Below are positions 8,041 to 62,949 of a DNA stretch of 64,000 nucleotides, one piece after another; positions within the stretch are counted from its first letter, which is position 1, and each line of letters opens with the position of its first letter. The notes below the pieces were generated by a model. That model was given only the letters and a program-made list of their open reading frames with translations, had not been told where the DNA came from and made no database searches. Source of the DNA: an uncultured Pseudomonadales bacterium (lineage in GTDB: Bacteria; Patescibacteriota; Microgenomatia; UBA1400; PJMF01); the NCBI GenBank assembly GCA_964406075.1, contig CAYOQI010000004.1, positions 57,718 to 121,717 of the forward strand. Direction: 5' to 3'. The position numbers and the translations under genes were made by a program.

Positions 8041-8817
8041 TTAATACTCAACCCGTCGAGCATACCGGAAGTAACGAACCGGAGAGTTCAAGAATTTACA
8101 GGTGTACAAAATAATATCGGCATCATAATCAGTGATTTCTTCACCTTCTTCACCAGCATAAATCTCATACTCATATCGACGTTTATCCCAGATCACTTCA
8201 AACGTATCCCCAACTTCTAATTTATTGAGGTTAAAAAAGGAATTTTGTCGACGATAGGCGTCTGTCCACTTGAGATATCCAAAGCGGTGAGCCAATAAAA
8301 TCATCGGACCAAGACTCTCTGGAGTAGCAAACTCTGTTTCTCGCCATACACCATGGCGCAAAGAATCTTCTGGCTCCACCGATTCTCCAATTTCAGTACG
8401 AACTCCAATCTTAGGAATGACTAACCAATTTCCATCTGGCAAATTTTCATCTCGAGGAGGGAGAACGATTTCAGAGTACAAAGTTCCCTCAGAATACAGT
8501 CCTCCCAGAGGTGATTCAGGTGTCTTGGCTTCAATTTGGACTCGTTCAACGGGTACAAATTTATAAAATGTATCTGGAAATAAGAATGCTGAAGCTACAA
8601 CGATTGACCCAAACAGTCCAATGGAAGAAATCAAGGAAATCAGATGTTTCCCAATTTTTCTTGGCTGTTTCTTAGGAAGAATAGTAGTTTGCACAGCAGA
8701 CCACATGAGCCACTCTTGGACTCTCTGTTCGCGTTGTCTGGCAAAATTGATCGTTGTATATAGCATATTAACTTGATTATTATAGGATACTTTTCCCGTT
8801 TTGTCCAGATACAACAC
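8041..8817 (-). CDS. sortase-family transpeptidase (membrane anchored)
   Basis: An N-terminal TM segment (LISLISSIGLFGSIVVASAFLF) is followed by the catalytic triad context LLAHRFG (His), IILYTCKF (TLxTC-like Cys) and a downstream Arg (RYFRYARR). The exact start is uncertain because there are several in-frame Met codons. Confidence 0.7.
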   Translation of the reverse strand: MLYLDKTGKVSYNNQVNMLYTTINFARQREQRVQEWLMWSAVQTTILPKKQPRKIGKHLISLISSIGLFGSIVVASAFLFPDTFYKFVPVERVQIEAKTPESPLGGLYSEGTLYSEIVLPPRDENLPDGNWLVIPKIGVRTEIGESVEPEDSLRHGVWRETEFATPESLGPMILLAHRFGYLKWTDAYRRQNSFFNLNKLEVGDTFEVIWDKRRYEYEIYAGEEGEEITDYDADIILYTCKFLNSPVRYFRYARRVEY

Positions 8818-14122: not shown

Positions 14123-14189
14123 TGCCCCCACCGGGAACCTGCCTGCCGGCAGGCAGGTCGAAATTTGGATTTAGGGTTTAGGAAATTAG
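14123..14189 (-). other. tRNA-Arg 3'-half-like segment interrupted by a 20-nt palindromic insert
   Basis: The minus strand reads CTAATTTCCTAAACCCTAAATCCAAATTTCGAC[CTGCCTGCCGGCAGGCAGGT]TCCCGGTGGGGGCA. Outside the bracket it aligns with the 3' 44 nt of the adjacent tRNA-Arg (TTTCCTAAACC, TAAATCCA, TTCGAC and TCCCGGT are all shared). Confidence 0.6.
14133..14162 (-). repeat. conserved 30-nt GC-rich palindromic element, copy 1
   Basis: The plus strand reads GGGAACCTGCCTGCCGGCAGGCAGGTCGAA, a 9-bp stem ACCTGCCTG / CAGGCAGGT with a 4-nt loop. It is 29/30 identical to 62367..62396. Confidence 0.85.
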
Positions 14190-14261
14190 TGCCGATACCG
14201 GGAGTCGAACCTGGATTTAAGGTTTAGGAAACCTCCGTTCTATCCATTGAACTATATCGGC
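14190..14261 (-). tRNA. tRNA-Arg (anticodon CCT)
   Basis: Hand-folded cloverleaf: GCCGATA TA GTTC-AATGGAT-A-GAAC G GAGGT TTCCTAA ACCTT ... TTCGACT ... TATCGGC A. The acceptor strands are complementary. There is one A-C mismatch in the T stem and no encoded CCA. Confidence 0.8.
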
Positions 14262-14343
14262 TATGAGTATAAAAAATTGTCATCCATAGGCTGCCTGCCC
14301 GCCTTTGGAGGGATCGCCTTTGGCGGAAACTATGGGAGCAGTG
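14262..14343 (-). other. GC-rich structured spacer between tRNA-Pro and tRNA-Arg that begins with a tRNA-5'-end-like GCTCCCATAG
   Basis: The minus strand reads CACT GCTCCCA TAG TTTCCGCCAAAGGCGATCCCTCCAAAGGCGGGCAGGCAGCCTATGG ATGACAATTTTTTATACTCATA. It contains an outer stem CCATAG/CTATGG, the direct repeat CC(G/T)CCAAAGGCG twice, and a GGCAGGCAG motif shared with the palindromic element. Confidence 0.4.
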
Positions 14344-17435: not shown

Positions 17436-18788
17436 GTGCTAAAGTACCAAAATCTTGCTTTTTTTTCTTACATTGGAAAATATTCTAAAAAATGGGACTA
17501 TGTCTCATTCATTCTGCTTGCAACTTGCCTGTTTCTAGCTCCTAGTAACCTTTTTCTCAAGTTGCTTCCAAACACCGGCTACGTAAACAATCTGCAAATC
17601 GATTATTTGATCCCAAAACTGCATCTCTCTTTCCTTTTCCTCTTACTTTTTGTAATCACAAGACTACCAGTTATACTATTTAAATTTAACAAATCTTCTC
17701 AAGTATTTAAAAAAAATAAGTATTGGCTATTAGGACTGACGACACTTTTCATTCACCAATGCTTTGCCGTCTTCCCTATGGTTGCATTGTGGACCTTTAT
17801 TAGCCTGGTCATTTTTCTGTTATTTTATCGAACTGCTACTCTTTTTTTGGATACACTTTCTGACGCAAAAAAACAGCTCTTTATCTGGGTGCTGTACATT
17901 ACTCTGTTCTTTCAAGCAGGACTCGGAACATTTCAGTTTGTAACCCAACGATCACTTGGAGGATTTTTATTCTTAGGAGAAACAACATTACGCAACCAAC
18001 CGTATTTAGCCCGAGGAGATTTTTACTTCATTGATTCAATTGTAGGAACTAGTTTTGGGCAACGAGTACTCCCTTACGGCACATTACCTCATCCCAATGT
18101 CTTGGCAGGATTTTTGGCTGTAGGAATGGTTGTGCTTTTTTATCGATTAACAATAAATAACTGGCTCAAAAGTTTGTTGATGCTCCCACTACTGGTGACG
18201 TTATTCTTAACACTCTCTATCTCAGCTTGGATGACACTCTTACTCGGTTTGCTATCTCTATATTTCAAAAAAACGGCTCTTTTTCAGAGCAAATCTATCT
18301 GGTTCGCTATTTTAGGAGTCTTTTTTCTGATTCCAGTACTTCTTGGAATTTCTCAGCCAAAGGCTGATCAGCCTTTGGCTGAGAATTTATTTCTGAGGTC
18401 TTGGTCATCTAATACTTCAATCACTCGTCGAGTTATTTTAAATGAAGTTGCTCTTAAAGAACTCGCTTTCCAACCAGTATTTGGAGTGGGATTTAATCAC
18501 TTCACAGTCTTTGTAGAAAGATTCCAACCATCTTCAGAAGTCGTCGCTTTTGTCCAACCAGCGCATCACGTGGGACTCTTGATGTTGGCAGAACTTGGAA
18601 TTCTTGGTACAGGATTAATCTTGAGGTTAATGAAAAAGATAATGAAGCTGGATCGCCAATCAGTCTTGTTTCTGGCTATTTTGTTCTTACCCATTGCTTC
18701 GCTTGATCACTATCTCTTCACCTTAATTCAAGGGTGGTGGCTGGTAGTAATTGCTTGTTTATTTCTCAGTTCTGAGAAGAAAACTTAA
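17436..18788 (+). CDS. O-antigen ligase/polymerase-like (Wzy_C family) polytopic membrane protein
   Basis: 450 aa with about 10-12 helices. The loop LPYGTLPHPNVLAGFLAVG and the FGVGFNHF motif are typical of WaaL/Wzy_C-type proteins. The start is GTG. Confidence 0.65.
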   Translation: MLKYQNLAFFSYIGKYSKKWDYVSFILLATCLFLAPSNLFLKLLPNTGYVNNLQIDYLIPKLHLSFLFLLLFVITRLPVILFKFNKSSQVFKKNKYWLLGLTTLFIHQCFAVFPMVALWTFISLVIFLLFYRTATLFLDTLSDAKKQLFIWVLYITLFFQAGLGTFQFVTQRSLGGFLFLGETTLRNQPYLARGDFYFIDSIVGTSFGQRVLPYGTLPHPNVLAGFLAVGMVVLFYRLTINNWLKSLLMLPLLVTLFLTLSISAWMTLLLGLLSLYFKKTALFQSKSIWFAILGVFFLIPVLLGISQPKADQPLAENLFLRSWSSNTSITRRVILNEVALKELAFQPVFGVGFNHFTVFVERFQPSSEVVAFVQPAHHVGLLMLAELGILGTGLILRLMKKIMKLDRQSVLFLAILFLPIASLDHYLFTLIQGWWLVVIACLFLSSEKKT

Positions 18789-62322: not shown

Positions 62323-62352
62323 AAAAAAGCTGACTAAAAGTCAGCTTTTTTT
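62323..62352. terminator. bidirectional rho-independent terminator
   Basis: The stem AGCTGAC (62328-62334) / GTCAGCT (62340-62346) has loop TAAAA and is flanked by A6 upstream and T7 downstream. It can therefore terminate both the plus-strand Wzy_C-TPR gene and the minus-strand tRNA transcription unit. Confidence 0.8.
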
Positions 62353-62353
62353 A

Positions 62354-62405
62354 TGGTGGACCGTGGGGGAACCTGCCTGCCGTCAGGCAGGTCGAACTCT
62401 CACTG
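62354..62405 (-). other. tRNA 3'-half-like segment (T-arm region with palindromic insert + acceptor strand + encoded CCA)
   Basis: The minus strand reads CAGTGAGAG TTCGAC[CTGCCTGACGGCAGGCAGGT]TCCCCC ACGGTCC A CCA. It lies directly 3' of tRNA-Ala(CGC) and directly 5' of the terminator. Confidence 0.55.
62367..62396 (-). repeat. conserved 30-nt GC-rich palindromic element, copy 2
   Basis: The plus strand reads GGGAACCTGCCTGCCGTCAGGCAGGTCGAA, which is 29/30 identical to 14133..14162. The single difference is in the loop. Confidence 0.85.
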
Positions 62406-62476
62406 TGGACTCACGGGGAATTGAACCCCGAACTATGCAATGCGAATGCATCGGTATACCGTTTACCTATGAGCCC
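62406..62476 (-). tRNA. tRNA-Ala (anticodon CGC)
   Basis: Hand-folded: GGGCTCA TA GGTA-AACGGTA-TACC G ATGCA TTCGCAT TGCAT AGTT CGGGG TTCAATT CCCCG TGAGTCC A. The G3:U70 identity pair is present. Length is 71 nt with no encoded CCA. Confidence 0.85.
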
Positions 62477-62509
62477 GAATGCTATGTACTACCACTATAC
62501 GAACGGCCC
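62477..62509 (-). other. tRNA 5'-half-like segment (acceptor strand + D-arm + 5' anticodon stem)
   Basis: The minus strand reads GGGCCGT TC GTAT-AGTGGTA-GTAC A TAGCA TTC and abuts the 5' end of tRNA-Ala(CGC). GGGCCGT is complementary to ACGGTCC in 62354..62405, with a G3:U70 pair. Confidence 0.5.
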
Positions 62510-62518
62510 TCATTTCAA

Positions 62519-62755
62519 TTAAATCAGTCGCTTATTTCTAAAAGCAAATCCTGCTCCCGTTTTTAAATACTTTTCAAATTCTATTGCGAGTTTTTCTGAA
62601 GCAAAAGCGGAGTAGAAAATTAGTTTACATGGGAGAAAGTTTTTTGTTGCCTTAACTCTTCCCGAGCTATGCTCTTTCAAACGAGTTTTCAAATCAGAAG
62701 AATAACCAGTATATATTGTGTTATTTATTAGCTGAAGAAGATATGTGTAATACAC
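62519..62755 (-). CDS. stand-alone GIY-YIG (URI domain, UPF0213/YhbQ-like) nuclease family protein
   Basis: 78 aa. YYTYLLQLINNTIYTGYSSDLKTRLKEHSSG matches the GIY-(10-11)-YIG pattern with the downstream R..H and E residues. Confidence 0.75.
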   Translation of the reverse strand: MYYTYLLQLINNTIYTGYSSDLKTRLKEHSSGRVKATKNFLPCKLIFYSAFASEKLAIEFEKYLKTGAGFAFRNKRLI

Positions 62756-62878
62756 TTGAACCTTAAAGTCCTACTTCGCTAAAGCTACGCGGGACACACT
62801 TCGCATGACTTAAAATATCTCTTACTATAAAAAGTGGCCTGCCACACGAAGCTCTGAGTGATAACGAAGAGCGAAGTG

Positions 62879-62949
62879 TGGACCCGAGGGGAATCGAACC
62901 CCTTTCTATTCCATGCCATGGAAGTATACTACCGGTGTACTACGGGCCC
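62879..62949 (-). tRNA. tRNA-Ala (anticodon GGC)
   Basis: Hand-folded: GGGCCCG TA GTAC-ACCGGTA-GTAT A CTTCC ATGGCAT GGAAT AGAA AGGGG TTCGATT CCCCT CGGGTCC A. G3:U70 is present. There is one C-U mismatch at the top of the anticodon stem and no encoded CCA. Confidence 0.75.

Follow-up and report, generated by a model that had tools for sequence, protein, structure and literature searches.

Why should a bacterial tRNA gene lie between what appear to be the two halves of another tRNA gene? The question is raised by a stretch of 64,000 nucleotides (nt) of contig CAYOQI010000004.1 (assembly GCA_964406075.1, from an uncultured bacterium of the Patescibacteriota; the whole stretch is called the window hereafter), in which a 156-nt unit at positions 62354-62509, the Ala locus, carries a complete tRNA-Ala(CGC) within an outer, split, tRNA-like shell. 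The original prediction, made from the sequence alone, had offered three explanations for this shell: a processing or maturation scaffold, an aminoacylatable minihelix-like RNA, or the relic of a site-specific insertion into tRNA genes. Comparison with related loci favors the third. The shell is almost certainly the dead resident tRNA-Ala(CGC) gene of this lineage wrapped around its replacement, and the 156-nt unit is a DNA scar, not a designed RNA. The best explanation overall, to which we assign a probability of roughly 0.8, is that the scar is a dead resident gene and that its cause, as we infer it, was a selfish replacement system targeting tRNA genes.

On the minus strand, the order and coordinates of the unit proved to be exactly those first described: a 5' half, the complete tRNA-Ala(CGC), a 3' piece interrupted by a palindrome (PAL), an encoded CCA and a terminator. 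The locus comprises the following features (bp, base pairs; aa, amino acids).

63991-63071, minus strand: Obg gene.
62878..62949, minus strand: intact tRNA-Ala(GGC), called by ARAGORN and matched by Rfam at 53.2 bits.
62756..62877, minus strand: cassette leader of 122 nt, conserved and structured.
62519..62755, minus strand: GIY-YIG open reading frame (ORF) of 78 aa, catalytic domain only (Pfam PF01541).
62477..62509, minus strand: outer 5' remnant, nt 1-34 of the resident tRNA-Ala(CGC), pairing 7/7 with 62364-62358.
62405..62476, minus strand: inner tRNA-Ala(CGC) of 72 nt, called by ARAGORN and matched by Rfam at 63.7 bits.
62392..62404, minus strand: junction segment AGTGAGAGTTCGA, a degenerate 5' strand of the T stem followed by TTCGA.
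62372..62391, minus strand: PAL, a 20-bp palindrome CCTGCCTGACGGCAGGCAGG, between T-loop nt 58 and 59.
62354..62371, minus strand: outer 3' remnant TTCCCCCACGGTCCACCA, nt 59-76 (TTCCCCC ACGGTCC A CCA).
62323..62351, no strand assigned: bidirectional intrinsic terminator (repeat I14), common to the convergent TPR gene.

The end of the TPR gene adjoins the terminator, beyond the 156-nt unit. Read on the minus strand, the outer 5' piece is GGGCCGT TC GTAT AGTGGTA GTAC A TAGCA TTC (tRNA nt 1-34), and the 3' part of the shell (62404-62354) consists of the junction segment, PAL and the 3' remnant in succession. The outer strands GGGCCGT and ACGGTCC are fully complementary (7/7 pairs), G3:U70 included, and the CCA of the shell is the sole encoded CCA among the tRNA ends of the window, as the original prediction had stated in both cases. 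The tRNA-like quality that it had seen in the shell pieces did not hold up. The T stem of the shell (GAGAG/CCCCC) contains two A.C mismatches, nt 35-48 are missing, and the Rfam tRNA model finds no match to the pieces of this shell, or of a second shell at the Arg locus described below, even at E<=10.

What, then, was the shell? Relatives were sought through the neighboring TPR protein and their loci were fetched; L-numbers label the fetched loci and contigs that were compared with the window. The closest relative found, L108, has a TPR protein 66% identical to that of the window, a tRNA-Ala(GGC) that is 100% identical over nt 1-74, and the same gene order, Obg / tRNA-Ala(GGC) / tRNA-Ala(CGC) / terminator / TPR. 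Its locus is without the inner tRNA, the palindrome and the GIY-YIG gene, and its tRNA-Ala(CGC) (GGGCTGTTCGTATAGTGGTAATACATAGCATTCGCATTGCTAGAACGGGGGTTCGATTCCCCCACAGTCCACCA) is one uninterrupted gene; CCA is encoded in both of its tRNA-Ala genes. The shell of the window is identical to this gene at 31/33 positions in the 5' half and at 24/25, CCA included, in the 3' end (GTTCGA followed by the 3' remnant; 17/18 for the nt 59-76 remnant alone), and one difference in the acceptor is compensatory, with C5:G68 in the window and T5:A68 in L108. The 9 nt ahead of TTCGA (CAGTGAGAG, which includes C62405) match L108 at 4/9 positions, the remaining shell being about 95% identical. Relative to L108, PAL is inserted exactly between GGTTCGA and TTCC, with neither target duplication nor deletion, and a 72-nt tRNA-Ala(CGC) of another sequence type occupies the place of resident nt 35-48. 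In more distant relatives, TPR and Obg are only about 48 nt apart, with no tRNA in the gap.

Because L108 holds the shell as one intact syntenic gene, the shell is identified as the resident tRNA-Ala(CGC) gene of the lineage, an intact syntenic ortholog being what marks a pseudogene as that of a resident gene. To judge from the alignment, three changes destroyed it: nt 35-48 were replaced, PAL was inserted and the T stem was broken. The remnants, nt 1-34 and 59-76, still pair because they are the two ends of one recently killed gene. In keeping with this, ARAGORN called no tRNA on the joined shell halves, with or without PAL and with the intron option included, and called a tRNA-Ala(CGC) once nt 35-48 of L108 were added to them; no cloverleaf of the kind expected of a functional tRNA gene is left when the inserts are removed from the outer shell. 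The dead-gene reading explains why the Ala shell has the only encoded CCA of the window, and it makes the "tRNA inside a tRNA" annotatable as a dead resident gene plus its replacement.

Two other candidates were tried and rejected. An intron-containing, split or permuted tRNA is ruled out, since joining the halves does not yield a tRNA, the 72-nt insert is a tRNA in its own right and no Rfam intron family was found. An assembly artefact is ruled out by the independent Logan contig L053, which is identical over 653 nt spanning the shell and the GIY-YIG gene, and by the recurrence of the architecture in isolates and metagenome-assembled genomes from many projects.

Could the nested unit be a functional RNA, either a processing or maturation scaffold or an alanine-accepting minihelix (G3:U70, A73, CCA)? 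Folded in silico, the 156-nt unit does fold as it had been drawn, with the outer helix closed around the inner cloverleaf and the PAL hairpin (-56.7 kcal/mol, z = -2.66; 1/200 shuffles folds as well). The complete outer helix, its G3:U70 and the encoded CCA agree with such a role, as do the recurrence of the nested arrangement at the Arg locus and in L001, L036 and L046, and the avoidance of helices by PAL insertions, which in this resemble expansion hairpins. However, G3:U70, the perfect helix and the CCA are all present in the intact L108-like gene; they are therefore inherited and are not evidence of new function. Neither functional role is supported by a shell that is not a tRNA, that has lost nt 35-48 and whose T stem is broken, or by other loci, where the 5' piece is usually absent or, as in L046, the outer helix pairs at 5/7 positions without the standard acceptor-T-arm spacing. 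Moreover, the sequence of PAL, and not just its structure, is kept nearly identical across phyla, which suggests that PAL is recognized at the level of DNA or protein, or else that it spread recently. We consider a functional RNA highly improbable.

Could tRNA-Ala(CGC) have been duplicated or triplicated locally in tandem, its outer copies then decaying at random with no mobile element involved? The original prediction had named flanks that are simply remnants of a tandem tRNA-Ala duplication, without a product at the transcript level, as a finding that would overturn it. Inner and outer copies are indeed the same isoacceptor, and in L036 and L001 they share acceptor sequences (in L036 the upstream flank too). 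In the window, though, inner and outer sequences are of different tRNA-Ala(CGC) types, with differences all along the acceptor, D arm and T arm; to the single L108 gene, by contrast, the outer one is about 95% identical. A 5' piece upstream together with a 3' piece downstream would need three copies and two deletions, and an identical PAL at an identical position in unrelated tRNAs and phyla is not what random decay produces. This history is very unlikely.

The inner tRNA-Ala(CGC), which has no encoded CCA, gives an alignment score of 95 against a tRNA-Ala(CGC) of L064 and of 76 against the resident gene of L108; the better match, in L064, adjoins a GIY-YIG cassette. On its sequence, the inner gene is presumably a functional replacement copy that now supplies the function. 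A consensus promoter scan of the minus strand found no promoter of its own. Transcription would probably reach it by read-through from the GIY-YIG gene and continue to the terminator; RNase P and trimming of the 3' end would release the tRNA, to which the CCA-adding enzyme would attach CCA. In that case the shell pieces would serve only as leader and trailer of the transcript.

The GIY-YIG gene is present in a single copy in the window. Its 78-aa product matches Pfam PF01541 (E=2.5e-14), its nearest structure is PDB 1zg2 (UPF0213, uncharacterised; E=3.6e-7), and it is 39% identical (E=2e-14) to a Flavobacterium ORF that lies between a tRNA-Leu and a PAL fragment; an exact look-up of the protein found it not on record. 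Two marks of a homing endonuclease are seen here, namely the catalytic family (PF01541) and presence or absence at the same site (window versus L108). In the window the cassette begins directly after C74 of tRNA-Ala(GGC) and replaces the encoded CCA that is kept in L108: after nt 74, L108 continues CA and the window continues ACTTCGC. All of the Patescibacteria cassettes (5/5) start after the discriminator or C74 of a tRNA or tmRNA gene (TCCA followed by CACTTCGC), the same leader being found after a tRNA-Val, a tRNA-Ala(CGC) and two tmRNA 3' ends in L054, L064, L063 and L142. This leader is about 120-130 nt long and does not occur in L108. The aligned spans are 62756-62885 of the window (minus strand), 1808-2000 of L054, 1858-2000 of L063, 1864-2000 of L064 and 1375-1500 of L142. 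RNAalifold on four leader sequences gives 25 pairs, 8 of them with compensatory changes, in a fold with a long-range helix (ACACTTCG with CGAAGTGT) around a GCTC..GAGC hairpin and a terminator-like hairpin (GTGGCAGGCCAC), followed by a 3' hairpin. The leader has no Rfam match; it is possibly a cis-regulatory RNA, or else the terminus of a mobile element.

CAC takes the place of CCA after three tRNA ends of the window (in ascending order, at 14123-14125, 14340-14342 and 62875-62877), and these ends belong to tRNA-Pro (..CGA CAC), tRNA-Ala(GGC) (..CCA CAC) and the Arg shell (..GCA CAC). At tRNA-Ala(GGC), where it can be checked against L108, the CAC is by alignment the start of the GIY-YIG cassette; at the other two ends it may be a remnant of the same kind of insertion.

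Is the Ala locus alone in this architecture? PAL (CCTGCCTGNCGGCAGGCAGG) occurs twice in the 64 kb, where 0 copies are expected by chance, and both copies occupy the same T-loop position. The second is at the Arg locus, for which the same architecture had been predicted and was found, with a 5' remnant, an inner tRNA-Arg(CCT) and a 3' remnant with PAL at the same position.

14262..14339, minus strand: outer 5' remnant, comprising GCTCCCA TA GTTT, a 38-nt insert, the remainder of the D arm and an AT-rich, promoter-like stretch.
14326-14289, minus strand: the 38-nt palindromic insert within the outer 5' remnant.
14189..14261, minus strand: intact inner tRNA-Arg(CCT), called by ARAGORN and matched by Rfam at 66 bits.
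14123..14188, minus strand: outer 3' remnant, spanning anticodon loop (TTTCCTAA) through acceptor end and interrupted by PAL at 14157-14138 (T-loop nt 58|59).

The 3' partial copy begins 4 nt after the intact tRNA-Arg(CCT) and ends TGGGGGCA. Its outer helix, GCTCCCA with TGGGGGC (14130-14124), has 7/7 pairs with one G.U; the T stem across PAL keeps 1/5 pairs, and shell and inner tRNA differ throughout. By analogy with the Ala locus, the Arg shell would also be of resident origin. The longest palindrome of the window, the 42-nt PAL2 (AATTTCTCAGCCAAAGGCTGATCAGCCTTTGGCTGAGAATTT; 18347-18388, plus strand), lies in frame in a membrane-protein ORF (..ISQPKADQPLAENL..), and inserts related to it are present in the D loops of the Arg-locus shell (14326-14289) and of a pseudo-tRNA-Arg(TCT) in L019. 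From these copies, PAL2 looks like a second palindromic insertion family, of the kind of the Rickettsia palindromic elements (RPEs).

Similar loci are widespread. A scan of one genome per GTDB species with the pattern TTCGA-CCTGCC..GGCAGG-TTCC returned 52 stretches, 37 with the PAL core in a T-arm context, and a scan of JGI metagenomes added 23 PAL-in-T-arm loci; the counts that follow refer to 61 PAL-in-T-loop loci, the window included. At 42/61, the 900 nt upstream of the PAL fragment include an intact tRNA of the same strand (11 of the remaining 19 are cut by a contig end). These tRNAs are 31 Leu(CAA), 5 Arg(CCT), 2 Ala(CGC) and one each of Ile(GAT), Arg(TCT), Pro(GGG) and Arg(GCG); the Leu(CAA) loci are from Flavobacterium, Nonlabens, Psychroflexus, Chitinophagaceae and Saprospiraceae, and the others mostly from Patescibacteria. 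A GIY-YIG ORF of about 80-90 aa lies directly upstream of the PAL fragment, on the same strand, at 39/61 loci, and at most Bacteroidota loci it stands between the intact tRNA with its terminator and the fragment. The signature thus ranges over Flavobacteriia, Chitinophagia, Saprospiria and several Patescibacteria lineages.

The fragments begin in the T stem (L040, L006, L008, L011), the anticodon arm (Flavobacterium, L030, the Arg locus of the window) or the D loop (L025, L118), and in L040, L003 and L006 the tRNA repeat runs on into the terminator. Tandem arrays occur in L128/L129 (up to six copies), L004, L010 and L043. Nested forms, with a 5' remnant, an intact tRNA and a PAL-tagged 3' remnant, are found in L001 and L036 (Leu) and in L046 (Ala-CGC), where 15-nt inverted repeats flank the inner gene; mirror forms, in which a PAL-tagged 5' fragment is followed by the ORF and an intact tRNA, are found in L104 and L144. 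A search of viral contigs with a GIY-YIG profile built from these ORFs, and independent of PAL, returned 6 loci, 5 of them next to tRNA genes or fragments, and 3 of these 5 have PAL or PAL variants. Rfam at the gathering threshold, applied to the window and three Flavobacterium loci (and at E<=10 to both shell regions), gave intact tRNAs and chance matches only, and full-text literature searches, including the PAL sequence, found no description of PAL-tagged tRNA replacement. The recurrent signature, an intact tRNA beside a PAL-tagged fragment of a second copy, is apparently undescribed, and the shell of the Ala locus is highly likely to belong to this PAL-marked replacement phenomenon.

Two viral loci deserve description of their own. 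On a phage contig (L104, 490-880; L147 is from the same contig), tRNA nt 1-33 with a D-loop PAL precede a GIY-YIG ORF, after which the same 5' part leads into a tRNA that is interrupted, after the CT of the anticodon loop, by an insert of several hundred nt, a probable group I intron that encodes an HNH-like ORF. One tRNA gene thus appears to be host to two selfish elements of different kinds. L146 and L148 are the two ends of IMGVR_UViG_3300027819_000412 (16.3 kb). One end has a GIY-YIG ORF and then an intact tRNA-Lys(TTT), and the opposite end has a second GIY-YIG ORF, a hairpin CTCTCC..GGAGAG and, fused to it, a tRNA-Lys 3' fragment (AATCCCAGTCGGCTCA). This hairpin implies that palindromes other than PAL can tag displaced T loops.

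Might these fragments be attL/attR-type (attachment-site) remnants of an integrase-mediated island or prophage that was later lost? Direct repeats of tRNA 3' ends, some running into the terminator (L040, L003, L006), are the classic signature of such integration, and the contig ends just described, with tRNA-Lys at one and its 3' fragment at the other, are of the same kind. Yet only 0-700 nt separate the intact tRNA from the fragment, with at most the GIY-YIG ORF and no integrase, so that PAL loci lack the recombinase and the island between repeats that define att sites of the integrase type. Excision would restore a single copy, and both PAL and the 5' remnants would be left unexplained. An integrase origin is barely tenable.

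How would a resident gene come to be replaced in this manner? Mosaic genes offer clues. L008 and L015 agree completely up to nt 47 of tRNA-Arg(CCT) and once more from the start of the spacer; between these points, the intact gene has its T arm and the 3' strand of its acceptor swapped (ACAGG/CCTGT..CGGGGCT versus GGTGG/CCACC..CGGGGCC); the displaced fragment keeps the L015 version. In L125, the acceptor strand of the fragment pairs better with the 5' strand of the intact tRNA than does the tRNA's own 3' strand. Taken with the differences between inner and outer genes in the window, this mosaicism suggests that often the newcomer is the intact gene, in whole or in its 3' part, and that the fragment is the displaced resident. 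The right junction is always at T-loop nt 59, whereas the left one varies from upstream of the gene to nt 22, 26, 34 or 43; because the left junction varies, a 5' remnant sometimes survives, which gives the nested look.

We propose that a selfish system for replacing tRNA genes left this scar, and that it acts as follows. A nuclease would break the T loop of the resident tRNA gene, and the break would be repaired from donor DNA that carries a replacement tRNA or tRNA part, often also a small GIY-YIG ORF, and a right end of the form (G)GTTCGA plus PAL. The downstream end would be rejoined precisely through TTCGA/TTCC microhomology beside PAL, and at the upstream end resection would proceed over differing lengths before the incoming DNA, with its working tRNA or part, was attached. 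The outcome would be either an intact tRNA plus a 3' fragment or, where the resident 5' half partly survives, the nested form. With PAL in it, the displaced fragment would no longer be a tRNA, could not be cleaved again, and would offer no long stretch of homology through which the insert could be deleted. That the GIY-YIG nuclease drives the replacement has, in our estimate, slightly less than an even chance.

Several observations weigh against this account. L108 is the only close relative available for the comparison of the Ala locus. A metagenome scan for the outer 5' half, in which window and L108 variants were both allowed, gave 0 matches and so no population intermediates. The left junction of the inner tRNA has neither homology nor a target duplication, and the proposed mechanism does not explain how a whole tRNA gene entered another. 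The 78-aa protein consists of the catalytic domain alone, without a DNA-binding domain; its matches to TIGR01453 and to phrog_314 ("homing endonuclease") are below the cut-offs, and it is a predicted nuclease with no known cleavage activity or target. An ortholog of the Arg shell, sought through the NDK neighbor, was not found in three relatives (NDK 91-95% identical), where the tRNA-Pro/tRNA-Arg arrangement is not kept: L137 has tRNA-Pro only, L140 ends at tRNA-Pro and L141 has neither. No GIY-YIG gene lies near the Arg locus, and 0 were found within the <=8 kb examined around the other 17 non-Leu or ORF-less PAL loci, mostly of Patescibacteria; the nuclease link therefore rests mainly on co-location in the Bacteroidota and at the Ala locus. 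Finally, PAL is also found in non-tRNA viral contexts, often between direct repeats of 7-14 nt (for example cacagaga|PAL|cacagaga in L075), and may be an independent mobile mini-element.

The behavior of PAL itself bears on this last point. Fetched loci contain more than 80 copies, and the exact 20-mer occurs in 35 stretches of viral contigs (L073-L107) of very different, often GC-rich, context, with at least 6 copies on one viral contig (L093, L100, L101); cultured-phage and plasmid collections gave no PAL-in-T-loop match. Dispersed, hairpin-forming copies are what characterizes palindromic elements, and PAL has them. At the T loop it shows no target duplication relative to L108, and no transposase was identified. 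Within folded pieces it is found at unpaired positions throughout (T loop 58|59, D loop, the boundary of D loop and stem, between nt 31 and 32, variable loop), and it also occurs in the 3' strand of the acceptor, in fragments without the 5' strand. (G)GTTCGA stands directly 5' of PAL at most loci, even where nothing tRNA-like lies further upstream, and in 22/52 distinct fragments T-stem pairing across PAL is 3/5 or worse, as if PAL were a junction.

One could accordingly regard PAL as a mini mobile palindrome that is mobilized in trans, similar to repetitive extragenic palindromic (REP) sequences, RPEs or miniature inverted-repeat transposable elements, and that favors single-stranded loops of tRNA genes, with the GIY-YIG cassettes forming a separate element that targets tRNA ends. 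PAL would then kill tRNA genes, and the host would survive only where an intact copy had been acquired or already existed as a duplicate. The PAL copies outside tRNA genes, their 7-14 nt direct repeats (DR) and the DR-PAL-DR-PAL arrays of L073 and L102 are what this view expects, as are several PAL copies within one pseudo-tRNA, at the D loop, T loop and acceptor end (L118/L136, L025, L041, L003). It is also in accord with the lack of a nearby GIY-YIG gene at checked PAL loci outside the Leu/ORF group, with PAL2 inserts both in the D loop of a pseudo-tRNA and in frame in a protein gene, and with Patescibacteria cassettes that sit at tRNA or tmRNA 3' ends without a PAL shell. It is harder to reconcile with the ORF being sandwiched between intact tRNA and PAL fragment at most Bacteroidota loci, with the tandem repetition of ORF+PAL units, with the PAL-tagged fragments recovered by the PAL-independent GIY-YIG search, and with PAL often forming a junction to non-tRNA DNA where a clean insertion would be expected; nor is a transposase candidate known. 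We regard two separate elements as doubtful.

The replacement reading can be taken one step further. PAL, the (G)GTTCGA-PAL end and the ~80-aa GIY-YIG protein could together constitute a so far undescribed class of selfish, tRNA-gene-replacing elements found across phyla. Such an element would act on folded or single-stranded DNA to break the T loop, put a tRNA or tRNA part of its own in place and lock the remnant with PAL, leaving a host that depends on the element and cannot delete it by simple recombination. Action on folded or single-stranded DNA is proposed because PAL is found at unpaired positions only. We put this forward tentatively, as a possibility with the odds somewhat against it. 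If the nuclease link is causal, it would give a role to the large UPF0213-like GIY-YIG family, which is without an established function, and would point to horizontal replacement of tRNA genes in the streamlined genomes of the candidate phyla radiation and to a very small site-specific insertion system.

There is also a practical consequence for annotation, in that PAL-bearing fragments can be mis-called as tRNAs, as ARAGORN does with pseudo-tRNAs in L097 and L118. In a tRNA-Met(CAT) on a phage contig (L097, 2239-2330), PAL lies in the variable loop and ARAGORN still calls a tRNA, which, with its long extra arm, would be similar to class II tRNAs. The same PAL insertion, together with a deletion of the T arm, is found on a related contig (L074, about 8570-8650).

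How do these loci compare with known systems? With tRNAs that are split, permuted or interrupted by introns (group I, or archaeal introns with bulge-helix-bulge motifs), the Ala shell shares foreign sequence in the anticodon loop and complementary outer acceptor strands, but its "exons" are without nt 35-48, its insert is a tRNA and not a ribozyme, and Rfam finds no intron. Small palindromic insertions are known as RPEs in Rickettsia, as REP sequences and REPINs, and as GC-rich palindromes of fungal mitochondria. Like RPE and REP sequences, the palindromes described here are short, GC-rich hairpin insertions scattered in AT-rich genomes and tolerated in genes (PAL2 at 18347-18388 is in frame); PAL, in contrast, is only 20 bp long, near-identical across phyla and, in these genomes, almost entirely confined to nt 58|59 of the T loop in displaced tRNA fragments.

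Integrative elements in tRNA and tmRNA genes reportedly carry a replacement 3' part and use sublocations in the anticodon loop or T loop (Williams, 2002). The PAL loci resemble them in the intact tRNA with a displaced 3' fragment as direct repeat and in junctions in the anticodon loop or T loop, and differ in having no integrase, an "element" of 0-700 nt, PAL within the repeat, 5' remnants and mirror forms. The GIY-YIG endonuclease SegB of phage T4 and related Seg proteins are encoded within tRNA gene clusters, and their spread is thought to co-convert flanking tRNA sequence. A GIY-YIG gene embedded among tRNA genes is common to both systems, but Seg proteins exceed 200 aa and have DNA-binding domains, and their loci show no partial tRNA duplication and no palindrome tag; the protein of the window, for its part, scores far under the cut-off of TIGR01453, the family of group I intron endonucleases.

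Closest to the loci described here are free-standing homing-endonuclease ORFs of the GIY-YIG type. One such ORF is reported to have invaded the mitochondrial atp6 gene of Allomyces together with a replacement 3' end of that gene (Paquin, Laforest and Lang, 1994). Here too, an intact and partly foreign gene is separated by a small GIY-YIG ORF from the displaced fragment of the original, filled and empty sites are polymorphic (window versus L108), and the 3' end of the gene is mosaic (tRNAs of L008 versus L015). The PAL loci differ from the atp6 type in that their targets are bacterial tRNA and tmRNA genes, that the protein consists of a catalytic domain of ~80 aa only, that a 20-bp palindrome marks one precise position of the fragment, and that a whole replacement gene can lie inside the old one.

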